Shown in pieces: positions 46,782 to 64,000 of a DNA stretch of 64,000 bases; within the stretch, counting starts at the first letter, position 1; each line of letters begins with the position of its first letter. Source of the DNA: Bdellovibrionota bacterium. GTDB taxonomy: Bacteria > Bdellovibrionota_C > UBA2361 > JAAYZI01. A model generated the notes under the pieces. That model saw only the letters and a program-made list of their open reading frames with translations. It made no database searches and had not been told where the DNA came from. A program made the position numbers and the translations under genes. Where the stretch lies: NCBI GenBank assembly GCA_050950765.1, contig JBMNIF010000002.1, forward strand, positions 11,738 through 75,737, written 5' to 3'.

Positions 46782-48014
46782 TCAGTATTCTTCATGAGAC
46801 GTATCAGAAATCCTTAAGATCTCAAGATTCTCAGCTGCTTTAGTAAACCCTGAATCTAAGTCTAAAGCTTTTTTAAACTCATATTCAGCATCCGACCTTC
46901 TTTCTAAAGATAGATAAACCTCTCCCAGTGCATTGTGATAACGCGGATTGTAAGGACAGAGCCGTAAGGCACGCCGATAATGGAATAATCGATCTGGTAA
47001 CGATGTTGCCTGCTCAGCACTAGTCTCCTCTTTTTTAGCTTCTACACAATCATCATTATAGCCACTATAATAATCATCATTATCAGTAACGTTATCGTTA
47101 ATGGATGCCGCCTTTAATTCAGGTAATAACTGCACCACATTCGGATCATTAGCAGGCGCTGCCTTTGTTTCGGATGTTTTTTCAACTTTAGCCTGTTCCT
47201 TTAAAAGTGATTTCCCTTGATCCCTCCAAGCATATCCAGCACGTGCCGTATCCTCAATCTTATCAGGCGTTGTCATAGTCGATTTTGTTGCCGTGCCAAA
47301 AACACCAGCATCTACCCTTGTTGGAAGAGAAACTGGAGTGACCTCTTTCTCTACGGCAAAAGCGACCTCCGGACTTTGCGTTTCAGCTATAACGGGCGCC
47401 TTGTAAGTATTATTAAGCGCCGTGTTCGTGTTGCTATTTTCATTCAATACAGTCGTAGCCGGTTTAGGAAACTGTGAAGGTGTTCCGAAATTGGCAGTAT
47501 TGTTATAAGCAACACCTGCGGCATTTCCATAAGACCCACTCCTATACGAATTGGAAAAAGCATTTTGCCGTCCCCAACTGTTGGTACCGTTATTAAAACT
47601 ACTCCTATTTAAATTGAAGCTATTATAAGGCGAGAGTGTGTTTCTTGAATAATCTCTGTAAGCCACCTGATCTTGACTCATGCGACGCAACTCTTCAATT
47701 TGCCCCTGTTGCTCACGAATCTGTCGATCTTGCCTTGCAAGCGCCTCTTCCTGATTTCTAATAGTTTTTTCTTGAGCTTCAAGAACATTCCCTAACGCTG
47801 ATCCCGCCCCTGCACCGGCTAGAGAACCGATTACGAAACCACTTCCGGCATCACCCGTTTGGCTGCCGATAATAGCACCGACTCCAGCACCAAAAGCACC
47901 ACCAGCTGCCGCCCCCACCGCAGTTGTCTTCCCTGGTTCCGTACACGCTGCTGTCAATAATATTAAACCGATAAAAACGGTAATCTGATTACTCTTCATA
48001 AAACACCCTACCAC
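46782..48014 (-). CDS. Glycine-zipper/coiled-coil lipoprotein with a Ser/Asn-rich linker and a C-terminal TPR-like segment.
   Basis: Lipobox LTAAC. Shares the N-terminal module with 46039-46740 and 48030-48437. Confidence 0.55.
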   Translation of the reverse strand: MVGCFMKSNQITVFIGLILLTAACTEPGKTTAVGAAAGGAFGAGVGAIIGSQTGDAGSGFVIGSLAGAGAGSALGNVLEAQEKTIRNQEEALARQDRQIREQQGQIEELRRMSQDQVAYRDYSRNTLSPYNSFNLNRSSFNNGTNSWGRQNAFSNSYRSGSYGNAAGVAYNNTANFGTPSQFPKPATTVLNENSNTNTALNNTYKAPVIAETQSPEVAFAVEKEVTPVSLPTRVDAGVFGTATKSTMTTPDKIEDTARAGYAWRDQGKSLLKEQAKVEKTSETKAAPANDPNVVQLLPELKAASINDNVTDNDDYYSGYNDDCVEAKKEETSAEQATSLPDRLFHYRRALRLCPYNPRYHNALGEVYLSLERRSDAEYEFKKALDLDSGFTKAAENLEILRISDTSHEEY

Positions 48015-48029
48015 AGAAAAAAAATTAAC

Positions 48030-48437
48030 CTACTCAAAACGCCGTACCGACTCATTATGGTATTGTTGACGTTTCAGATCTTGAACCTCCCTATCCTGTC
48101 GCTTAATCTCCTCCTGTTGTCTACGGATGATCTCTTCCTGTTCGGCAACGATCGCTTCGTTGTCCTTAGCACCATCCACCACAGCCCCGACTGCCGCTCC
48201 CGTGATCATTCCAGTGCCTGCTCCGATTAAAGCGCCCTCTCCTTTATGTCCCGATTGATTCCCTATAATCGCACCTGCTCCGGCACCTGTCACAGTACCG
48301 ATTGCAGCGCCCTCAGCCATAGGGCTTGGATCACCACCTGAACAGGCAACACACGATAAAACCACCGCAACCACCGCAAAAAAACGAAAGCTATCCATAG
48401 ACACAACACCCACTAAAATAGGATCAAAAAAGTTCAA
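48030..48437 (-). CDS. Small glycine-zipper/coiled-coil lipoprotein.
   Basis: Signal peptide with Cys. Third member of the same paralog module. Confidence 0.5.
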   Translation of the reverse strand: MNFFDPILVGVVSMDSFRFFAVVAVVLSCVACSGGDPSPMAEGAAIGTVTGAGAGAIIGNQSGHKGEGALIGAGTGMITGAAVGAVVDGAKDNEAIVAEQEEIIRRQQEEIKRQDREVQDLKRQQYHNESVRRFE

Positions 48438-48600
48438 CTCTTAATAAAAAATCCGTCACAGTAACTTTACACAAAGAACACCAAACGGAACAGCATAAAT
48501 ATGCACTTTAATAAAAAAAGATCTGATATATTTAGAAAAGAGATACCTTTTAAAGTGATCTTTGCAAGGAGAACCGTTGTGAATAATGAAACGTCACTCG

Positions 48601-49083
48601 CTACACTTTATGTTTGGTAGGTTTTAAAAGAAGAATAAAAACACCGATACAAACTGCACTATCAGCTACATTAAACGCTGGCCAGTGTATGTTTTTATAA
48701 TACACGTCAATGAAATCAACGACTTGACCATAACAGATCCTATCGATAACATTACCTATGGCACCACCAACAACTAATGCCATAGCAAAATGAGCTATAA
48801 AATCATCTTTAAAGTGTCTCTTTAAAAAGTACACTATCATAAGTAGCGCCAAAACCGTTCCACTGTTGATAATTAGATGCCTCCACAGATCAGTCAACTC
48901 TGAAAGCAAGCCAAAGGCGATCCCTTTATTAAAAGTTAAAGTGAGGTTTAAAAACGACGGAATTATCGGAACAACAACTCCTTCAGGGATATTTTTTAGT
49001 ACCAGAATTTTTGTAACCTGATCTAACACCGTAACAAATACAGCTAAAAGCCATAATAATCGAAAGCGGTTTTTTCCACTCAT
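48601..49083 (-). CDS. lspA: Lipoprotein signal peptidase II.
   Basis: About 160 aa with 4 TM helices and the conserved ...NKGIAFG... and ...FNVADSAV... motifs. Confidence 0.85.
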   Translation of the reverse strand: MSGKNRFRLLWLLAVFVTVLDQVTKILVLKNIPEGVVVPIIPSFLNLTLTFNKGIAFGLLSELTDLWRHLIINSGTVLALLMIVYFLKRHFKDDFIAHFAMALVVGGAIGNVIDRICYGQVVDFIDVYYKNIHWPAFNVADSAVCIGVFILLLKPTKHKV

Positions 49084-49125
49084 TGCAAAGCCCCTCTATT
49101 GTACCCAGCCCACTATATATTTTAA

Positions 49126-50484
49126 TTATTGTTCCTCTTGAGATTTACGGAACTTTTCAGCAGCGAGTTGATCTATGGAGATAGCAACTACCTTACCATC
49201 AACACTCCCTGCCACTATCTCCGCTTCTTTCGTAAAAGTCAGCACCCTCAAGTTAGTCGCCTTTATCTCGTATTCAAGAGCGAGCTCATACTCCACCAAT
49301 CGCCCCTCTTTCTCCCTTTTTCGCCAAACTTTCAACATACCATCACGGGCAATAGTTGCAACTCTATCCCCTTCCGGACTAATGGCGATGTCGTATATCA
49401 TCCCGTCATGTGCTTGAATATCGACAACTTTTGATAATCCCCGCACCTGCCAGACCTCAACACTTCCATCTTGCGCGCTAAGCACCAAAAATTGCCCGTT
49501 TTGACTGATTTTTATACGATCAATTCTCTCTCCCGCATTACGCGCCGCACTCTTTAAAGCGGGAACATTTGCAAAAAAACGCGTTCCGAAAAGGTTTTCA
49601 TCATATTCGCCTTTATAGGCATCTGAACCATACACCAACCACGCCTTTAAATTCCCCACCCAATCACCGCTAAAAAAGAGCCTGCCGTACGGATGAAAAG
49701 CCACCGCACTCACAACACTGGGATGCCCGTGATAACGATCTAGCCCTGCCGTTCCTACCCGTCCCCCTCTTAGGGGTTCTTGCGGATTAAACGCCCAACG
49801 ATAAACCTTACTATCCGTCGCACCGATTATGATTGATCGTGCTTCCGGATCAAAAGCCATAGAAACTGCGTTAGCTGCTAACTTAGAAAGCTCAAAAGGC
49901 CCTTTAGATCCCGCCATTATCGGTAAAATTATAATTCTCGACCCTTTAGATATTCCGATATAGGCACCATTTGTAGAAAAGACTGCGACACCAGGTTTTT
50001 CCGGTAAGAAAAACATCCTCCTTCTCATTTTTCTACGCAGATCCCAAACCGAGACCTCCCCCTCTGAATCAAGGGATAAAACGAAGCTTCGTCCACTACA
50101 ATCTCTAACTACCTGTAATGCTTTAATATACCCTCTTGCGGCGCTAGTTGTGTATGTGCCGTCCTGCCATCCGTTGTAACAATTTTCCGATATATTCTGT
50201 TTTTCTCTCTCGGCAAACGGTTTATTACTGCTTTGTGCATCTTTTCTTGCGACTAGCGGTTGACGGATCGTTGAATCCTCCATAAACTCAGCACCGACTT
50301 CGATCCTATCACCACTCGGTTGAACACGGTTTCTAACCGTTTGAGGGCTCTCTGAGAAGATATCAAGCGGTTGAAGATTAGCGCAAGCACTTAAACAAGC
50401 GCTGCTGAAAACCGAGATAACCGTGATAACGATTAGATGTTTATAATTTAAGAGTTTATGATTCATAGAGTCTCTGCCTAGCAC
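49126..50484 (-). CDS. WD40/beta-propeller repeat lipoprotein.
   Basis: Signal peptide with LSAC. Repeated ...DG.V.VW... and GH...V..VAFHP blades. Confidence 0.65.
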   Translation of the reverse strand: MLGRDSMNHKLLNYKHLIVITVISVFSSACLSACANLQPLDIFSESPQTVRNRVQPSGDRIEVGAEFMEDSTIRQPLVARKDAQSSNKPFAEREKQNISENCYNGWQDGTYTTSAARGYIKALQVVRDCSGRSFVLSLDSEGEVSVWDLRRKMRRRMFFLPEKPGVAVFSTNGAYIGISKGSRIIILPIMAGSKGPFELSKLAANAVSMAFDPEARSIIIGATDSKVYRWAFNPQEPLRGGRVGTAGLDRYHGHPSVVSAVAFHPYGRLFFSGDWVGNLKAWLVYGSDAYKGEYDENLFGTRFFANVPALKSAARNAGERIDRIKISQNGQFLVLSAQDGSVEVWQVRGLSKVVDIQAHDGMIYDIAISPEGDRVATIARDGMLKVWRKREKEGRLVEYELALEYEIKATNLRVLTFTKEAEIVAGSVDGKVVAISIDQLAAEKFRKSQEEQ

Positions 50485-50668
50485 GATTTTTGAAGTTGTA
50501 CCATAACATGGTGAAAAATAATTGGCTAAGGAGATATTTTGACATCAAAAAAGGGCTTTATTATCGTCTTTTAGGATCGTAGTGTAAGTTTTTACATCAT
50601 TGATATGTTGTGGTGTTATTGCTATGCACACGCAACAATTATAGTTTTAGCAAATCCAAAGGAAAGAG

Positions 50669-52006
50669 ATGCAAGAAGAAAATCACGGAAACAACAACGA
50701 GTTGGAGAATAATCAAACTTCTGAAGTAGCAGAAACAGAGCAGAAGAACAGTATTGAGCACGTTTATTTTGAAGTTGGCAATGATCTGACCTCAAAACCG
50801 AATGCTTTGGCTGACCTCATTCAAACAGTGGAATATCCACACGTTGAAGTGTTTTGTAACAGTCCATCCGAAGCCGATTTTGTTGATGCTATCCTCAGGA
50901 AACGTAATATCCCTTGCGGGAAATTGATCGGTCACGTTCCGTACTCAAAGATCTCTCAAACTTTACATCAGTTAAATACGGGATCTCTTAATGTTATTAT
51001 CGTCACCGATATCTCTGCAAATGAGATTGACCCAGGTCAGTTTGATATCAGCATTAACTATGCCATTCACGAAGATCCTGAGATCTATCTGCACCGTTGC
51101 ACCCCGCACTCTCAAGAGTCTAAGTTACAGAAAGTTTATAGCTTGGTTGGACCTCTTGATTTCGGAAACTTTCACTATCTTAAGAAAGTTGTCGATTTTG
51201 AATTTTCAAAAGGTGCCTTACCTACTAAAGATGATGTAGCAAAAAGTGAAGCAGAGCGTCTCTTTACAAGAGCTGTTCAGAGCCCTCACGGTAAAGATGC
51301 CGCTACGCAAGATCTTGTTGCTTTAATACAGGCGCATAAAGATTGTAACGCTATTATCGGATACCTCCTTCACAACACTATGGTTACCCTTCCGGAGTTA
51401 AGCAACAGATCATCTTCTAAACAAGATGATTCTGTGGATAATTCACGTAGGGATCGCCGTGGAGATAGAGGCGATCGTTACGATCGTAGACGTGGAGGCG
51501 ATCGTTATTCTTCACGTGATAAAGGTCGTTATGATGATTCATTTAGTGATGATAGACGCGACAATCGTCAGATGCGAGAGGAGTATGAGCCACCGAAACG
51601 TGATGTTAGGTTCTACTTAGGTCAAGGTCTCAATGATGGACTTACAGATTACGAGTTCCGTAATGTCCTAGAGAATGAACTCAACCTCACTCCAGAACAG
51701 ATTAAGCGTCTTAGTATTCGCGATAATTACGCCTTCATAGATTTTGATGAAGAGAGTTCTGAAGAGATTATTCAGAAATTGCAGGAATTAGAGCTTCCAA
51801 ATATCGGGAAACTTTTTATTCGAAAAGCTACCGTAATCAACTCACCTAGAATAAGGATCTCTGCATCTAGTGAAGATAACGATGATAATAACTTTGAGGA
51901 AGAGTCTGCTAACGATACCTTTAATGATGAAGACTCTGACAACGGTGATTGGTGTGATGCTTCTGATGAAACTACGGATTTTGCTGAAGCAGATGAAGAA
52001 GACTAA
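50669..52006 (+). CDS. DeaD/CsdA-like RNA-binding protein that lacks the N-terminal DEAD ATPase domain. It comprises a helicase-C-like domain, an RD/RG-rich region, a DbpA-type RBD and an acidic tail.
   Basis: The helicase C domain is recognisable (IIVTDISANEID...SINYA) but motif VI is degenerate (HRCTPHSQES instead of HRIGRTGRAG). The C-terminal DbpA-like RBD reads ...KRDVRFYLGQGLNDGL... Confidence 0.6.
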   Translation: MQEENHGNNNELENNQTSEVAETEQKNSIEHVYFEVGNDLTSKPNALADLIQTVEYPHVEVFCNSPSEADFVDAILRKRNIPCGKLIGHVPYSKISQTLHQLNTGSLNVIIVTDISANEIDPGQFDISINYAIHEDPEIYLHRCTPHSQESKLQKVYSLVGPLDFGNFHYLKKVVDFEFSKGALPTKDDVAKSEAERLFTRAVQSPHGKDAATQDLVALIQAHKDCNAIIGYLLHNTMVTLPELSNRSSSKQDDSVDNSRRDRRGDRGDRYDRRRGGDRYSSRDKGRYDDSFSDDRRDNRQMREEYEPPKRDVRFYLGQGLNDGLTDYEFRNVLENELNLTPEQIKRLSIRDNYAFIDFDEESSEEIIQKLQELELPNIGKLFIRKATVINSPRIRISASSEDNDDNNFEEESANDTFNDEDSDNGDWCDASDETTDFAEADEED

Positions 52007-52345
52007 TAGTCCTCTAAGGCTCTAATCAAACAAAAAGGGGGATCGTGACTAAATAAAAAACGCTCCCCCTCATCTCTCCGTTTTGTTATATAGCACTACC
52101 TACTTACGGCACTACCAACTTTGTACCAGCTATAACATTTGTACCTTTCAACTTATTTGCTTTCTGCAAGGCAGATATAGAGACTCCAAGCTTTTTACTA
52201 ATCCCCCATAAAGTATCTCCAGATCTGACAGTATAACTTCTTACCTTAGGAGACGGTGATTTTGTTGAAACACCTTGTCGTAACGTCGGAATCTTTAAAA
52301 CTTGTCCGATCCTTAAAGTATCTGATGAGATACCGTTAAGGCGTT

Positions 52346-54025
52346 TTAAATCAGAGAGAGAGACTCCGTTCTTAGTCGAAATTGAATAAAGGTATCTCCC
52401 TTTTTTACCCGATAAGTCCGAGTAACCACACCTTGCGGAGCTTGAACATTTTTTGATGTTGCTACATTAGAGTGCGGAAGCGTTATTTTTTGACCGATTA
52501 TTACAGTAGTAGACTTTAAGTTGTTAGCTTTTTTTATAGCATCAACTGAAACGCCGAACCTCTTAGCAATTCCTGATAACGTATCTCCTTTCCTTACGGT
52601 ATATGAAGTTACTTTTAAACGAGAAGGAGCTTCTGTCGTCACCTGCTGAGCAGCGCCACCTTTTACTATTAAACGTTGCCCGATTCTCAAGGTATGAGAT
52701 TTCAAGCCGTTTAACTTCATTAACTGAGACACCGTCGTATTATATTTCCTAGCAAGAGAGATCAATGTATCTCCCTTTCTGACCTTATACGTGATGCCGC
52801 CATAAACAGAGCTGGCAGCAGGTGCCATTGGCTCTACCTGCGCTAAGTTAGCAACATATACACTAGCTTGTGGAGGAATTTTAAGGTTATACCCCCGCGG
52901 TAGGCGCGCTCTACCTGACCAGATCGGCGCAAGTAAGCCGTAATTAAGTGGAATCAGATCATGTTTTGAGATATGTAGCTGCCTTGTTAAATATTCAATA
53001 GAGGCGGAGTTTTTTAGTTTTAACTCAACAAAGGAAAGGGGACGTTCTATCTTTAGATTCGGGAAATAACTCTCCTTTTTCTCATAAACAGCCAGAGCCT
53101 GCTAAAAAATTCAGGGTAAAAATTATTCGAAGCAAAACCTAATAAACGTTGGGTGCGGTGCTCCACTATCTGCGTAATATCTTTTGTACCTAAAGTTTTA
53201 ACCTTACGCGCCACACCTGTTACACCGTGATTATAAGAAGTTATAGCGAGTGGCCAAGTACCCAAAACTCCATAAGCGTGTTTCAGATAAGCTGCAGCTG
53301 CACGTGAAGCTTCTATCACATCCAGCCTTTCATCAATCATGTTATTTAACCATCATCTTATACGATCTGGCAGTGGCAGGCATAAATTGCCAGATACCAG
53401 CGGCACCAACCGAGCTACGCACAGAATAATCAAAAGAAGACTCTACAAATGGGAGTCTTGTTAACTCTTTCGGCAAGCCAGCTTCTTTAACAAAGATATC
53501 TTCAATATGTGAAAGATATAATCCAGAACGCTCTAAAGCTTCTCGATAACGCTCTTTAATCCCCCTCTGTGAACGGATTAGATCGTTTTTAAAAAGATCC
53601 TCGTATTTCTTCGAACCACTCCCCAAAAAAGCCATTCTTCGCGCCATAGTTTTTTCAAGTTCTGAAACAGGTCGCTCTCCTTTAGCCAGACGTCTAGCCG
53701 CCCCTTCAACTATGGCAACATGTTTTTTTATCTCCTCTTTCTTATATTTTTCCAGAGCAACTTTATTCATTTTTTTAGCTGCAGTGTAAAAATCAAGAAC
53801 CATAAAAACGACTTGTGGATAAGCACGGTGATGGATTACCTCGTGGTTGTCACCGTAGCGCGTAAAGATATCTATCCAAAAATTAACACGTGGCTGGAGC
53901 CCCTTTGGCACTATAAAAGCGGCGTTACGTGTCTGCACTCTATTTTGAGAATAAAGTGGTAGTGCTGTAAAAAAAAGTATCATCGATACAAAAACAACAG
54001 ATAACCTTCTCATCTTTCTCTTCAT
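52346..54025 (-). pseudogene. MltD-like lytic transglycosylase (signal peptide, SLT domain, 3 LysM repeats) broken into three ORFs: 53342-54025, 53053-53340 and 52346-52828.
   Basis: The SLT motif ...AAGIWQFMPATARSY... ends in a stop with a frameshift at about 53340. The continuation reads ...IDERLDV...ITSYNHGVTG... Three LysM repeats lie downstream in the same orientation. Confidence 0.5.
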
Positions 54026-55392
54026 TTCACCTGATCTAAAATTACCTTAATAATTTTCTCCTCTACCTCCCACTTTTTAGAATGTGATAATCCATTGTTT
54101 TGCAAAATAGCAAAAGCATATTTTTTATTTATTCCTTTAATATAGCCTGCTAAAGCGCTAACTCCATCAATCGAGCCAGTTTTAGCTTTTATCACTGCGT
54201 GGGGGAACTTTAGTTTTCTTAATTTTAATGTTCCGCTTTCACCTCCTACTGCTAAAGATTTTTCAAATTCAGTTGAAATATATATATCGCTCCAAGCTTC
54301 TTGCAGAAGTCGTGTGATAATCCTCGCAGAGAGGCGATTATTATGACTAAGCCCTGAAGCATCTACGATATTATATTCAGAGCGCTTACCCAAAGAAGCG
54401 GCAAGCCCCCTAAGGCGATTTAATCCTACTTCTCGTTCTTTGGCTTTTATGTGAACGGTATCCAACGCAACCACAAGTTGTTCTGCCGTGAAGTTATTAC
54501 TGAACCTGTTCATATCCTCCACGATCTGACTAAGTGGTTTTGAGTACAGCACGAAAAATTGCTGCGCTTTCGCAGAAACCACTCCACTTCTTGAAACGGA
54601 CTGCACTTGAATACCTAAATCATTTAAAAAAGCCTTAAAGACAGCCGCAAGATAATCTTCAGGACAAGCTAAACTGCGGTAAACATTTTGACAAGTCGTT
54701 CCACGCACAATTTGTCCAGAAATGTGATATCTCCCCGCCACTCCACACTGCCCTGTGCCCCGATCTGTGATCTTAAAACCGTTCCCCCTATTTGTGGTGG
54801 TTTGAATCTCCCCTACTATGTCAGTTCTGTACTCCCACGGATCTTGTCTTACAAAGGCAGGTTGTCCGAGTGCAGCAGGACAAACCTCAAAGGTAAGAGA
54901 ATTAAAATTAAACGGCAAGCCGGATCCCCCCGCTTCATAAGCCCTCTCACCACTTCTTTTATTAACTGTTTTATATACAGAAGAATCCAGTATCAGGTGT
55001 TTTATCTGTTTTATACCACGCCGCTTTACAGCTCTGGCGAGTATCCAAAGTTGTTCAGTTGTTAAAGTCGGATCTCCCGAACCTATTATATAGAGAGAAT
55101 CCGCAACACCTCCTACCTCTCCTTGAAGAGATAATCTTGTTTGGAAACGATATTCCGACCCCAAAACTTTTAAAGCAGAATGTGCAGTCAAAAGCTTCAT
55201 AACGCTGGCAGGTTTAGCAGGTGTCGTCTCATTTAGAGCATAAACACTTTTAGCGTTATCAAGATCTACAACGGAGATATAAACCCCGTTAATATCTTTT
55301 ATAATCTTATTTAAAGTTACAGGAAGAGTCTCTGCCACAACAGGCGCTGCGCTGAACAAGACCCAGAATAGACCGATAAAAAATACCTTCAT
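54022..55392 (-). CDS. dacB: D-alanyl-D-alanine carboxypeptidase/endopeptidase PBP4 (S13 family).
   Basis: Signal peptide, the SxxK motif (ASVMKLLT) and a size of about 456 aa. Overlaps the mltD-like gene start by 4 bp. Confidence 0.7.
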   Translation of the reverse strand: MKVFFIGLFWVLFSAAPVVAETLPVTLNKIIKDINGVYISVVDLDNAKSVYALNETTPAKPASVMKLLTAHSALKVLGSEYRFQTRLSLQGEVGGVADSLYIIGSGDPTLTTEQLWILARAVKRRGIKQIKHLILDSSVYKTVNKRSGERAYEAGGSGLPFNFNSLTFEVCPAALGQPAFVRQDPWEYRTDIVGEIQTTTNRGNGFKITDRGTGQCGVAGRYHISGQIVRGTTCQNVYRSLACPEDYLAAVFKAFLNDLGIQVQSVSRSGVVSAKAQQFFVLYSKPLSQIVEDMNRFSNNFTAEQLVVALDTVHIKAKEREVGLNRLRGLAASLGKRSEYNIVDASGLSHNNRLSARIITRLLQEAWSDIYISTEFEKSLAVGGESGTLKLRKLKFPHAVIKAKTGSIDGVSALAGYIKGINKKYAFAILQNNGLSHSKKWEVEEKIIKVILDQVK

Positions 55393-55498
55393 GGATCCAC
55401 CCCCGAAAAACGATTTACCCTCAGGATCGTCAACTTTTTAATAGTTTTTTATCCCTTACACGGAATTTTTCCGTGCCCACTTTAACTTAACATAACAT

Positions 55499-56742
55499 TT
55501 ATAAAGTGGAGAGTCCCTCGTTATCACGGTAATCTAGAAAAACCTCTTCTGTGGTGGGGAGATCAAAAATACCGTTTGTAGCGGGTGGTAGAAGCTCTTT
55601 TAATTTATAGACATTTGCACCGCAGGTATAACAATTACACTTGGAAAAATGATAACAGAGACAGATCTTATCATTTATCACACCGAGATCTTTCTGCGAT
55701 GGTACACCGTTTAAAGCGTTCTGATAAGCATCAAGGTACTGACAGGTGCCGTTATCATTCAAGACGTATCCGAACAATTCACAGTTCGGTTTAACATTAG
55801 AAGCGAGACAGGGGCTATTTTTCAATAATCGAATCGGATAACCTGTTGGTGAAACGTGCGAAACCACCACATCTTCCTTTTTAGCGTGCAGATATGCTTG
55901 TTTAGCAACATCGGGCAATCCCGACTCCTTTGTAATAGCGAAACGAGTTGCTACCTGCACACCAGAAGCGCCGAGTTCCATCAGCTTTACGGCATCTTGC
56001 CCTCCAAAGACACCCCCTGCCGCCAAAACAGGGATATTGATATCTTTCTCTTTCATATAAGCTAGCAGCTCTTGTAATAACGTGCACAGATTGTAATCCG
56101 CCCAATCATCTCCGAAGCCGAGGTGTCCACCCGCTAAAGGTCCTTCCAAAACGATATAATCAGGTAATCTACCGGCACGCCCCGCACTCCGTAAAAATAT
56201 CGCTAAGGCGCGGTAACTTGAGACAACAATCCCTATCTTTACATGTTTTGCTTTCGGGTTAGTGACAACCATTCCCATGCTGTATTGATGTAATCCAGCA
56301 GAAAATGTAATCCCATCGATTCCACCATCTATTGCTGCGTTGATGCGTGCATTTAAAGTTTCTTTGGGCAGAGGCCATAGTCAACTTTTCCATAATATTG
56401 ATGAAGATGGCGCCGCTACCCTGTTTTTTATCCATAGCCTTACGCACATGTAATAACTGCGCCTCCCTAACCTCTTCTGGATTAAATTTAATATTAGTTT
56501 TATCGAAAAAAAGATCGTTGATCTATCGGAAAACGGCGTGCCTTATTTACAGAAAATGAAGTGCCGTATTTATGATCGCAAACATCTCCAACCATAGCAT
56601 CAGAGATGTGCCCTATTCCTCCAAGTCTACTTGCTTCTGCAGCCATCTCCGGCGTTGAGATATTAACTCCCATACCACCTATCATAATGGGAACGAACTC
56701 CTGACCTGCAATCTTTAAGGTATAATCAGCTACTTTTTTCAT
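55499..56742 (-). pseudogene. Nitronate monooxygenase/FabK-like FMN oxidoreductase interrupted by two frameshifts.
   Basis: N-terminal ...PIMIGGMGVNISTPEMAAEASRLGGIG..., middle ...VRKAMDKKQGSGAIFINIME... and C-terminal ...AAGGVFGGQDAVKLMELGASGVQVATRF... lie in three different frames. One shift is at an A7 tract (56506-56512) and the other at about 56335. Confidence 0.55.
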
Positions 56743-57200
56743 ACTTCTTTATCTCAACTTTTCTAGATACCCTCGTTACATCGTTGTAATTACCGTTAGC
56801 CATCGCAGAAAAACGGTAAGACATCAGGCGTTTATAGGATTTAAAAAATCAAATACACCAACGTGCACCATTTAGTATCTATTTTGCAACGTTATCCCAT
56901 AAGAGATCCAGCATCAAAACAACAATAAACCGTACATTGTACGGTTTGTTCTTTTCCACCCAAAACCTTTCCGCACTCTTTTTATCTATTCCCAACTTTC
57001 AAGCGTCTTTTATGCTCTTTTTTTCTATTTCAAGTCCCCCTCAAAAAAATATTAGCTTTGTAAGACCCTTACAATTATTCTCTTACAATTATCTTTTTGC
57101 TTAACAACCGTTTTCTGCGCTATATTAGAGACCAGAATTTAAAAAGATTCTGTAACTTCCCGTTGCTTAATTGTTGTATCTCTTTAATTTGGGAATATTG

Positions 57201-59953
57201 ATGAGAACGTTCTATATCTACGCCGGACGAAATACAGGGAATCCCGTTGCTAACATGATTATCACAACGGAATGTCAATTGTGGCCCTGGGAATATTTTC
57301 GAGAGATGCTGGACAAGATGGCAGGAGGATTTTCAGGGATCCGTTTTTTCCGGCTCTTTTTTTACCCCGCAAAGGGGTTTGCTATATCGCTCTAACAACA
57401 GACGATGCCTCAGCAGATCTTTTAGTCCAATCCTTTTATTCAGCCTTAGAGTTTACCTTCCCAGGTGTGGAGATACATGAAGGTCCAGATTTTATAGATG
57501 AGATAACTCCTGATATGGAGCTAGCTTCTACGGAGTTGTATTTCAAGCGTAGCTTTATCTATCCAACTACGACCGGTAAGACATTAAAGGTCAACCCTCT
57601 CGCCCCACTAGCTAACACCATGATAAACTTTCCTCCTGAAGATAGAGTCATCGTGCAAACTATCATAACCCCTCTTAAGGATGACGCCTTTTTACAATTC
57701 TACATTGCAAGAAGTAGAGCGATCGATCGTTTTACGCATAAATTTGAAGCTAAATACTGGTTTAAAAGAGATGCTGTGCCATACATTCATGAAAAAATAG
57801 AAGAAAAGTGCAAATCCAGAATTTACCAAGTAACTATTCGCTTAGCTGCTTTTAAAGAGTGTGAACAAACTCCTGCTGCAAAGAAGGAGATGCGTGAATT
57901 GTTGAAAAAACGGCTTCATTCAATGATCGGCGCATACGCTATTTTAAATGATTCAGACCTTAATACGTACCTCCCGACACCTGTTGTCTACGGTGAACGT
58001 GCTTTAAAACCGTTAAAAAACCGCACCTTCGGACGTAAGGTCTTACTCTCTCCGATTGAACTTGCAGCCGCTTGGCACCCCACAGGGGACTTCTCCAATA
58101 TGCCAAAGGTATTATCAAGACACTACGCTCCACCGCCAGATATGCCGCAGGAAGAAGGAGATCCGAATGTCTGTTTTTTTGCTCGCACTAATTACAGAGA
58201 AACAAAAGTTCCTTTCGGATTTAGTCGTCCCGATCGTAGAAAACACCTTTATGTACTCGGCAAATCTGGAACTGGAAAATCCTGTATGTTGCAACTACTC
58301 ATTAAGAACGACATGGAGAATGGGCACGGTGTAGGCGTAATAGATCCGCATGGAGATCTGATAAGTAATCTTTTAAAACTTGTTCCAAAAAACAGGGTTG
58401 ATGATGTTATTATTTTGGATCCCTCAGACAGAGATTTTCCCGCTAGCTTTAATCCGTTAGCTTGGGTACCGGAGCCTCTAAGAACGCCTGTCACATTAGG
58501 AATCGTCGCTATTTTTAGGAAGTTATTAGGTGAGAGGTGGAACGAACATATAGACTATTTAGTACGTGTTACCGTCTTGGCTTTACTCAGTACTCATGAT
58601 GCTACTTTACTCTCAATCCCGAAGATCCTGACAGATGAAAAGTACAGGGCAACAGTAGCGAGTGCCGTAAGCGATGACGGCATCAGAAAATTCTGGCTAT
58701 ACGCTTTTGATTCATGGTCAGAGGATCATCAAGCCGATGCCATAATTCCACTTATAGACGTTTTACGCCACTTCTTATCATCAGACATGATCAGAAATAT
58801 CGTCGGGCAACCTGTAAATCGCTTTGATTTCAGGTCTATTATGGATGATAAAAAGATCCTACTTGTTAAAGTTTCAAAAGGGCTGCTCGGAGATGAAAAT
58901 GCTACCCTCTTCGGCGCTCTCGTTGTTAGCAAGATCTATCAAGCTGCTATGTCAAGAGCTGACATTCCGCAGGAAGAAAGGAAAGATTTTTATTTTTACA
59001 TCGATGAATTCCAAACTTTTGCAGCTGAAAACGTTAAAGATATGTTGGCAGAATCACGCAAATATCACCTTAACTTAACTTTGGCACATCAATTTTTACA
59101 GCAGCTGCCGAGCGATGTTAGCAACACCATCTTCGGTAATGTCGGGAATGTTGTTACATTTTGCGTCAGTGGAGATGATGCCGATGTTGTTACAAAAGAG
59201 TTATTAAACGAGTTTGACCTTGTGTCATTAACAAATCTGCCGCTCCGAGAGTTCTATGTAAAGATGTTGGTTAATGATAAATCCACTAAGCCTTTTTCAG
59301 GAACAACTTTAACGGTTGAATATCCGGAGGATAGCTGCGCTGATGAGTGTGTTACCGCCTCCAGAAGTCAATATGCCGTACCTCTAAAACAGGCTGAAGA
59401 CATGATACTTCGTTGGGAAAAAGGGGATAATTTTATTGTTAGACCTGAGGTATTTGGAGAGCCTACTCTCGATCTACGTCAACATCTGAGGTATTACGGA
59501 ACTGTCTTACAACTTTCAGATCTAAATATTACTGATGAACACTTATTGCAATTAAGCCACACTGCTTTTGATAATGTTAAAAAATTGGTGCTGACTAATA
59601 CACGCATTACAGATAAGGGATTAACCTCGATAGCTAATTTACGAAACCTTACTCAACTCTTCCTTGACGGTACTGATATTACTGACAGCGGCTTAAAAGC
59701 GATCACAGTTTTGCCACGACTACGCATTCTAAATCTTAGTAGGACAGCAGTTTCAGCGCTAGGACTTGCGCCCTTACGAAGTTCCAAGATTAGAAAACTA
59801 ATTCTACGAGAAACTAAGGTAACCGATAACGGATTAAACTACCTGACTGAATTTAAACGGCTATCAGAAGTGGCGTTAGAAAGAACTGCTATTTCTGATA
59901 AGGCGCTCGATCAACTCTGTTCGAACTTACCAAATGTTAATATTCACGCCTAA
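57201..59953 (+). CDS. Large protein, copy 1: unknown N-terminal domain (about 320 aa), a HerA/TraD/VirD4-like P-loop ATPase and C-terminal leucine-rich repeats. There is an N-terminal frameshift at about 57345-57365, and the intact 893-aa ORF starts at 57272.
   Basis: Walker A YVLGKSGTGKS, then VIDPHGDL. Walker B ...FYFYIDEF... followed by ESRKYHLNLTLAHQF, which fits the TraG-D_C/HerA pattern. About 6 LRRs of the type L..L.L..T.ITD.GL. The conserved start MRTFYIYAGR lies in another frame than the long ORF. Confidence 0.7.
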
Positions 59954-60227
59954 GGAGCAGAACCGTTAGGGTATTTTTTCGCTATTTAATAAGCTAATAA
60001 GAGAGTCATTATAAAAACAATAAAAAAGCGTACATTGTACTGTTTTTCTTTATGAAAACTCTCCTTCCAAAAAGCATTAATTTTGTAAGATCTTAGGATT
60101 GCTCTCTTACAATTAACTTTTTGCTTAAAGACCGTTTTCTGCGCTATATTAAGCACAGGATTTTTTAAAAAAAAGATTCTGTAACTTCCCATTACTTAAC
60201 CTGTTATTTCTTATTTTAGGAATATTG

Positions 60228-62976
60228 ATGAGAACGTTCTATATCTACGCCGGAAGAGGTACTATGGATCCTGTTGCTGGCATCATTATCACAACAAAAT
60301 GCGGTTTATGGGCATGGGAATACTTTCGGGAGATGTTAACTGAACTAGCAGATATGTTGTCTGTTCGTTTTTCCGGTTGCTTTTTTACCCGTGAAGGGAT
60401 CTGCTACATCGCTTTAACCACAGATGATTCATCAGCAGATCTTTTGGTCAGCACCTTTTACTCATCACTCTCATTTATCTTTCCCGATCTAGAGATACAT
60501 GAAATGCCAGATTTCATAGATGAGATAACTCCTGATATGGAGGTAGCCTCTACGGAATTACGTTTTAAACGTAATTTCATCTTTCCAACTACTACGGGTG
60601 CAGAGTTAAAAGTCGACTCTCTAGCTCCATTAGCTAACGCTATGGTGAACTTCCCTCCTGAAGATAGAGTATATCGTACAAACTATTATGCGCCCCCTAA
60701 AAGATGATGTTTGGTTACAATTCTACATTGCGATAAACAGGGTCTTGGATCACATCAAGCATAAATTTGATGTTAAGTACTGGTTTAAAAGAGATGTTGT
60801 TGAATACATGTATGAACGGGTAGAGAAAAAGTGTAAAGACAGATTTTACGAAGCAACTATCCGTTTAGTTGCTTTTAAAAAATGTGAGCAAACTCCTGCT
60901 GCAAGAAAGGAGACGCGCGAGATATTAAAAAAGCGACTTTCTTCGATGGTTGGCGCTTATTCTTTTTTAAATCAGACAGATCTTAATAAGTACGTTCCGA
61001 CACCTGTTGTGTACGGTGAGCGCGCCTTAAGACCGTTAAAAAGACGCACCTTCGGACATAAGATACTAGTGACACCCATCGAGCTTGCTGCCGCTTGGCA
61101 CCCCACAGGTGATTTCTCCAATATGCCGAGGGTCTTGGCAAAACACTACGCCCCGCCACCAGAGATGCCACAAGAAGAGGGCGATCCAAATGTCTGCTTC
61201 TTTGCCCGTACTAATTTCAGAGAAACTAGGGTTCCTTTCGGATTTAGCCGCCCCGATCGTAGAAAACACCTTTATGTACTCGGCAAATCAGGAACTGGGA
61301 AATCATCCATGTTACAACTACTCATCAAGAGCGACATGGAGAATGGGCACGGTCTAGCTGTAATCGATCCACACGGAGATCTGATAAACAATCTTTTAAA
61401 GCTTGTTCCGAAAAACAGGGTTGATGATGTTATTATTTTAGATCCTGCCGACAGAGACTTTCCTGCTAGCTTTAATCCATTAGCTTGGGTGCCGGAACAT
61501 TTAAGGATGTCGGTAACGTTAGGAATCGTTGCTATTTTCAAGAAGTTGTTAGGCGAGAGGTGGAATGAGCATGTAGACTATTTAGTGCGTTTTACTGTCT
61601 CAGCTTTACTTAGCACTCACGATGCTACCTTGATGTCAATTCCGAAAATTCTAACAGATGTACGGTACAGAACAGCTGTGGCAGGTGTTGTAAGCGACAG
61701 TGGCATCAGAAAATTCTGGCTGCACGCTTTTGATTCATGGTCAGAAGCTCATCAAGCTGATGCTATAATTCCACTTATAGACGTTTTACGTCACTTCTTA
61801 TCATCAGACATGATCAGAAATATCGTCGGGCAACCTGTAAATCGCTTTGATTTCAGGTCTATTATGGACAATAAAAAGATCCTACTTGTTAAAGTTTCAA
61901 AAGGGCTGCTCGGAGATGAAAATGCCACCCTTTTCGGCTCTCTCGTTGTTAGCAAGATCTATCAAGCTGCTATGTCAAGAGCTGATATCCCGCAGGAAGA
62001 AAGGAAAGATTTTTATTTTTACATCGATGAATTCCAAACTTTTGCATCTGAAAACGTTAAAGATATGTTGGCAGAATCGCGCAAATATCACCTTAATTTA
62101 ACTTTAGCACATCAGTTTTTAAAGCAGCTGCCGAGCGATGTTAGTAACACCATCTTCGGCAATGTTGGAAATTTCGTTACATTCTGCGTCAGCGGAGATG
62201 ATGCAGGCACTGTTTCAAGAGAATTATCAAACGAGTTTGACCTTGTATCATTAACAAGTCTGCCGTTACGAGAGTTTTATGTAAAGATGTTGGTTAATGA
62301 CAAACCTACTAAGCCCTTCTCCGGAACAACTTTAACAATTAAATATCCGGATAATAACTGCGCTGATGAGTGTGTTAACGCTTCTAGAAGTAAATATGCC
62401 GTTCCTCTAAAACAGGCTAAAGATATGATTCTCCGTTGGAGGAAAGGTGACACCTCTTTTATCAAACCTGAAATGTTCGCAGAGCTTAAGATCGATCTAC
62501 GCCAACACCTGAGACGGCACGAAAGTGTCTTACAACTTTCAGATCTGGATATTACTGATGAGCATTTATTGCAATTAAGTCATACCGCTTTTGATAATGT
62601 CAGAGAATTGCTCTTAAGTAATACGCACATTACAGACAAGGGCTTGATTTCGATAGCTAACTTACGGAATCTTACTCACCTTTTCCTTGACGGCACTGAT
62701 ATTACTGATGACGGCTTAAAAGCGATCATGATGCTACCACGCTTGCAGATCCTAAATCTTAGTAGGACAGCGGTTTCAGGTGTTGGGCTTGCAACTCTAC
62801 GAGGATCCGAGATTAGAAAACTAATCCTACGGGAAACTAGGCTGACCGATAGTGGCTTAGATTGCCTGACTGAATTTAAACAATTAGCAGAAGTGGCTTT
62901 AGAGGGAACTGCTATTTCTGACAAAGCCTTCGATATACTTTGCTCGAACTTACCTAATGTTAATATTCACGCCTAA
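60228..62976 (+). pseudogene. Copy 2 of the ATPase-LRR gene, about 85% identical to copy 1, with a frameshift near 60690 (ORFs 60225-60707 and 60688-62976).
   Basis: The same domain order and the same motifs (YVLGKSGTGKSS, VIDPHGDL, ESRKYHLNLTLAHQF, LRRs). The reading frame switches in a C5/AT region relative to copy 1. Confidence 0.6.
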
Positions 62977-63069
62977 GGGGCAGATCCATTTAGGTTTTTT
63001 AAGTTAGACAATAAAAAACGTAACCTGTTACAGGGTGTATAACCACAAAATACATCCTGTACTCTTTAC

Positions 63070-63865
63070 GTTAAAAATCTGGTGCCACCCTTCTTTTTTG
63101 CCGCTTTGGCGGCTTAAGCGATTTGACGCGATAGTTCGGCGAATTTGGTGCCACCCACCAGTTAAAGTGGGTGTCCTAATTGGGGCAGGGGTCGAAAATT
63201 TGGTGCCACCCACCAGTGCTAAAAAACTCTAAAATTGTAATAGCTAATAATATCAGTATGTTAGCAAAAGTCCTGCATTCGGCGAATTTGGTGCCACCCT
63301 TCTTTGTTGCAGGCTGTCGCTGGTGCCACCCACTAGGGACGATTGAACGGGTGGACGAATTTGGTGCCACCCACCAGTTAAAAGTGGGTGTCCTAATTGG
63401 CAGCTAGTAATATCAGTATGCTAGTAAAAGTCCTACATTCGGCGAATTTGGTGCCACCCTTCTTTTTTGCCGCTTTGACGGCTTTGGTCAAAAATTTGGT
63501 GCCACCCTTCAGTTTGAGCGGATCTTAACGGCTTGTCACTGGTGCCACCCACCAGTGTTACAAGACTCTAAAATCAGGATAGCCAATAATATCAAGATGT
63601 TAGCAAAAGCTTAGCATTCGGCGAATTTGGTGCCACCCTTCAGGGACAGCAGGACGGGCTGCAACTGCAAAACAGATCGGTTAGGTTTCTACGGAGGTTA
63701 AAAATTTGGTGCCACCCTTTAGGGACAATTACCCTCCACCCACTAGGGGCGCTTGAGCGGGCTGATACAGAAAAGCGAATTAGCCAGATTTTCTACGGAG
63801 GTTAAAAATTTGAGCGGGCTACAACTGCAAAACGGATTCGGCTAGGTTTCTACGGAGGTCAAAAC
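63070..63865. repeat. Array E of the mosaic repeat family (about 11 cores, GGTGCCACCC orientation) with embedded small hairpins.
   Basis: Seen directly in sequence. Lies between the end of ATPase-LRR copy 2 (+) and a minus-strand ORF that ends at 63869. Confidence 0.9.
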
Positions 63866-63868
63866 TCT

Positions 63869-64000
63869 TAACCTTGCTTTTTTAAGCTCTCTGCAATTTT
63901 TAAAATTTGCTGCGTAGCTTTTTTGACATCATTCAACGTGCCGTTTCCGCCGACACAACCACCTTCACAACACATCACTTCCACCAAATTACCTTCAGGG
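63869..64000 (-). CDS. 3' end (about 43 aa) of a minus-strand gene truncated by the window edge. The fragment ends ...EVMCCEGGCVGGNGT...
   Basis: Open frame running to the window end with a stop at about 63869. The Cys-Gly motif is reminiscent of Fe-S/H-cluster-type motifs, but there is too little sequence to call it. Confidence 0.3.

Follow-up and report, generated by a model that had tools for sequence, protein, structure and literature searches.

A tandem pair of coupling-protein-like ATPases with C-terminal leucine-rich repeats in a Bdellovibrionota bacterium

Organisation of the tandem locus

The DNA analysed here, a 64-kb window from a Bdellovibrionota genome, carries two neighbouring paralogous genes of about 2.75 kb each on the same strand, copy 1 (57201-59953) and copy 2 (60228-62976). 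The features of the locus are given below; the domain limits of copy 2 are approximate.

56927..56947, no strand assigned: palindromic hairpin AAACCGTACAATGTACGGTTT from a terminator-like scan, left edge of duplication unit 1
57032..57200, + strand: copy 1 upstream region (putative promoter/RBS), 79% identical to 60057-60227
57201..59953, + strand: copy 1 CDS, 916 codons after removal of two spurious bases (T, C)
57201..58162, + strand: copy 1 N-terminal domain (NTD), about residues 1-320, DUF8128-type, predicted VirB4-NTD-like fold, no TM helix
58163..59407, + strand: copy 1 motor ATPase, about residues 321-735
59408..59500, + strand: copy 1 linker from the ATPase to the leucine-rich repeats (LRRs), part predicted flexible
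59501..59950, + strand: copy 1 LRR module, residues 768-916, six repeats of 23-29 residues
60026..60046, + strand: hairpin followed by a T-run between the copies, homologous to 56927-56947, left edge of unit 2
60057..60227, + strand: copy 2 upstream region, homologous to that of copy 1
60228..62976, + strand: copy 2 CDS, 915 codons after removal of a spurious A at 60671
60228-61185, + strand: copy 2 NTD
61186-62430, + strand: copy 2 ATPase
62431-62526, + strand: copy 2 linker
62527-62973, + strand: copy 2 LRR module

Self-alignment of the window bore out the adjacent, co-directional paralogs described in an initial annotation of this DNA: the units 57032-59978 and 60057-63000 share 82.2% DNA identity (E=0). 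The repaired proteins (916 aa for copy 1 and 915 aa for copy 2) are identical at 81% of positions (744/916), against the roughly 85% estimated there. The duplication of the upstream regions was likewise confirmed, at 77-79% identity, and a simple scan found no sigma-70 consensus site upstream of copy 1 (57032-57200). Hairpins related to AAACCGTACAATGTACGGTTT occur near 60026-60046 and near 63015-63040, and the surroundings of the first two hairpins (56900-56954 and 59998-60051) are 82% identical. Judged from its sequence, the hairpin with its T-run at 60026-60046 is likely the terminator of copy 1. Between the two copies, dS is about 0.7 and dN/dS is 0.15 overall; we infer that the duplication is old and that purifying selection has maintained both copies ever since. 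The other LRR-bearing loci examined showed no such tandem arrangement.

Interrupted reading frames and their origin

In the window sequence as given, the reading frames of both copies are broken, near the places named in the initial annotation. The longest copy 1 ORF in the uncorrected window spans 57272-59953 (893 aa), copy 2 falls into two ORFs (60225-60707 and 60688-62976), and the NCBI annotation of both genes contains truncated ORFs only. The frameshift reported near codon 50 of copy 1 was correctly located, but two surplus bases underlie it instead of one, namely a T within the base run 57344-57349 and a C within the base run 57365-57368. The copy 2 frameshift had been assigned to a C5 tract, whereas the surplus base there is the A of position 60671 (GT[A]TATC), 22 nt upstream of that tract.

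The window was compared with L007 and L008, independent contigs of this same organism from two JGI samples. Across window positions 47193-64000, this comparison yielded no substitutions in 16,809 columns and 14 single-base indels, 13 of which are extra bases in the window that mostly lengthen a base run. The frameshifting bases at 57344, 57365 and 60671 are missing from both contigs, which encode an intact copy 1 (916 aa) and an intact copy 2 (915 codons). The JGI protein P0266 equals the independently repaired copy 1 residue for residue, and P0268 is identical to repaired copy 2 from residue 13 on. A further extra C relative to the JGI contigs, at 60200, lies within the copy 2 upstream region. 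An MltD-like gene (639 aa) and an NMO gene (413 aa) are broken in the window and intact in the JGI contigs, and additional one-base indels of the same kind fall in intergenic DNA.

On this comparison between assemblies, the frameshifts are almost certainly one-base consensus errors of the present assembly and the genes are intact; among the options raised initially, read error was the right one. It is very unlikely that the JGI contigs and the MAG are true variants differing by indels alone, because no substitution was found in 16.8 kb. Real frameshifts, marking either recent pseudogenes or genes made phase-variable through homopolymer slippage, would account for the broken frames of the window sequence itself, for the truncated ORFs annotated at NCBI and for the position of two of the three extra bases within T and C runs, but we consider them very improbable. 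Two independent assemblies lack all 14 indels, like indels break unrelated genes and hit intergenic DNA, and the excess of insertions resembles consensus-error bias. Moreover, the extra base of copy 2 lies outside any homopolymer, the runs (T5 and C3) are shorter than efficient slippage would require, and the sequence upstream of the breaks has an omega of 0.15-0.23. Since the extra bases are missing from the JGI contigs and the genes are intact there, the ideas that both copies are decaying or that homopolymer tracts act as switches fail.

Protein architecture

Both genes encode soluble proteins of ~916 aa, with no predicted TM helix or signal peptide, in which the proposed three-part layout (an NTD, a P-loop ATPase of the FtsK/HerA/TraD class and about six LRRs) was recovered. 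The NTD had been described as lacking a recognisable family; however, relatives carry PF26449/DUF8128 in this domain, and structural modelling assigns it a fold like that of the NTD of the T4SS ATPase VirB4. Foldseek searches with the AF2 model (pLDDT=86.7) matched TrwK/VirB4 over the full length (E=8.8e-14) and TrwB with a TM-score of 0.63.

The motor is RecA-like and falls in the VirD4/TrwB-VirB4-HerA branch of the FtsK-HerA superfamily, with complete Walker A, Walker B and RK...Q motifs. The ATPase signature noted initially is present in both copies and comprises, in copy 1, GKSGTGKS (Walker A, 353), IDPHGD (380), YIDEFQ (Walker B, 599) and RKYHLNLTLAHQ (619); the insert that separates the two Walker motifs is entirely helical. 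Pfam searches placed the ATPase above the T4SS-DNA_transf cut-off (38.4 bits against 20.1) and also returned TrwB_AAD_bind and DUF87, together with LRR_8 and LRR_6 in the tail. By sequence as well as by profile, TrwB was the top match in the PDB, ahead of DotL and HerA. The linker contains a segment (722-731, P0001 numbering) with a pLDDT below 50 in the AF2 model and has the highest omega of any segment, 0.31.

A rare LRR-tailed variant of a large family

The NTD and motor together define the core of a very large, uncharacterised family of “orphan coupling-protein-like” ATPases, most of them TM-less and encoded at dispersed chromosomal positions; it has 5,524 representatives at E≤1e-30 and occurs mainly in Patescibacteria and Bdellovibrionota. 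Full-length homologues reach E-values down to 1e-184, with 40-44% identity over the NTD and ATPase. Like the window proteins, they carry the invariant motifs, most lack a TM helix, and they are encoded at scattered chromosomal sites without T4SS genes. Some members are annotated as “DUF87 domain-containing protein”. A distant plasmid homologue, spanning the NTD and ATPase, adjoins relaxase-like and conjugal-transfer genes. These DUF8128 ATPases are the orphan VirD4-like T4CP homologues reported previously (PMC12102498): 5,713 were counted in Patescibacteria, only 148 of them near virB4, T4CP genes being frequently located away from it. The homologue in Ca. S. epibionticum is dispensable, in an organism where the T4SS is essential, and exaptation has been proposed (PMC12102498).

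Typical members are about 720-750 aa long and either stop soon after the ATPase or have a disordered charged tail, whereas in the window proteins a linker of ~30 aa and six LRRs follow; the LRR-tailed pair is a rare variant of the family. These LRRs, which in copy 1 end in a conserved ...P-x-[LIV]-[ND]-[IV]-H-x, are 24-residue repeats of the F-box/GALA type (CC/GALA) and most resemble the F-box LRRs of FBXL2 and the GALA-type LRRs of RipG4 and LegL1, effectors of Ralstonia and Legionella, respectively. The segment is under purifying selection (omega=0.13). As the architecture is conserved, with 40-77% LRR identity to other lineages, in at least six other sequences from independent samples, the ATPase-LRR fusion is real and not the mis-assembly considered initially.

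The tail was seen in about 8-10 sequences only, all with housekeeping neighbours. A single one of 185,579 GTDB species representatives carries the LRR module, and in a set of 1.84 billion representatives only about three clusters (50% identity) contain the fusion. Full-length LRR-bearing proteins among the 5,524 core-family representatives were limited to P0004, P0122 and P0124. The LRR tail marks a small clade of anaerobic Bdellovibrionota-like lineages. The claim of an unrecognised architecture thus stands for the tail and not for the core, which belongs to a very large family (PMC12102498).

Housekeeping surroundings characterise both the 64-kb window and five to six homologous loci, in none of which T4SS, relaxase or defence genes were found; the secretion systems or defence islands suggested as possible neighbours were not present. 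The neighbouring genes, which include [FeFe]-hydrogenase, AdhE and Rex, suggest an anaerobic fermenter.

Relationship to known systems and alternative roles

The best PDB sequence matches were type IV coupling proteins (TrwB of R388, 1e9r; VirD4; TraD; DotL, 6sz9/7ovb; Cag-beta, 8dol), whose Walker A, Walker B and RK...Q motifs align with those of the window proteins and whose all-alpha domain corresponds in position to the helical insert. TraD and DotL bind partners at a C-terminal extension, and that of the window proteins lies at the same place. However, it is a folded LRR module instead of a short tail, a soluble NTD of ~300 aa replaces the N-terminal transmembrane domain, and the genes are not beside relaxase or T4SS genes. 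VirB4/TrwK (7o42, 8rtd, 4ag5) aligned collinearly over the full length in Foldseek but was undetectable by sequence, being absent from the PDB profile matches and scoring 13.6 bits with TIGR00929 (cut-off 643). VirB4 also lacks the LRR tail, and the VirB3, VirB6 and VirB8 neighbours of VirB4 systems are missing in the window. HerA and the HerA-type defence ATPases, among them the DptH C-domain, are members of this superfamily as well, and DUF87 matched above its Pfam cut-off; yet the window proteins have no HAS-barrel NTD, reach 13-20 bits with the NCBIfam HerA models (cut-offs 800-970), and no NurA, Sir2 or DUF4297 partner gene lies nearby.

It is rather unlikely that these proteins are genuine T4SS parts, that is, coupling proteins or VirB4-like energisers with an apparatus encoded elsewhere and the LRRs as substrate receptor. 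The Pfam T4CP models above cut-off, the fold matches to TrwB, DotL, Cag-beta and VirB4 and the plasmid homologue within a conjugation module favour such a role, as does the frequent separation of T4CP genes from virB4 (PMC12102498). It is opposed by the missing N-terminal TM anchor, the lack of T4SS and relaxase genes in the window and homologous loci, NCBIfam T4CP/VirB4 equivalog scores (TIGR00929 among them) far below cut-offs, the rarity of patescibacterial homologues near virB4 and the dispensability of the one in Ca. S. epibionticum (PMC12102498).

An NLR-like immune sensor or defence ATPase, in which the LRRs would sense an invader, the ATPase oligomerise and the NTD act as effector, seems quite improbable. 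A protein of three parts that ends in LRRs bears a superficial likeness to NLR/STAND proteins, a weak PADLOC match to mad8 (1e-13) was obtained, and tandem duplication recalls immune gene families. Nevertheless, no STAND module was detected (nSTAND 13 bits against cut-offs of 27-34), the motor being of the ASCE FtsK-HerA class and not NACHT/NB-ARC. The NTD has a predicted VirB4-NTD-like fold, not that of a nuclease, TIR or protease, and thousands of genomes encode the core family without any sensor domain. Every context is of the housekeeping kind and lacks a defence island, partner nuclease or Sir2, and the conserved LRRs are the opposite of diversifying arms-race sensors. The other role raised initially, a secreted or translocated effector hitting a eukaryote, would draw on the likeness of the LRRs to FBXL2, RipG4 and LegL1, although F-box/GALA-type LRRs are also frequent in bacterial cytoplasmic proteins. 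It appears extremely improbable for a protein that lacks a signal peptide, TM segment and secretion-system context, that is encoded among genes fitting an anaerobic fermenter, and 80% of which is a conserved cytoplasmic motor common to free-living and epibiotic bacteria.

Proposed function

We favour, with moderate confidence, a cytoplasmic ring ATPase whose LRR tail would dock a conserved protein partner. The proteins would assemble into rings and use ATP to move or remodel a macromolecule, as in their T4SS relatives, on which this view of the oligomeric state and the substrate is modelled. Canonical coupling proteins recruit partners by C-terminal tails (TraD with TraM; DotL with adaptors). 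The LRR module would replace such tails and would therefore serve as an integral receptor that recognises a conserved protein partner or substrate of the cell itself. The paralogs may serve different partners or form mixed rings, and they probably work independently of a classical T4SS.

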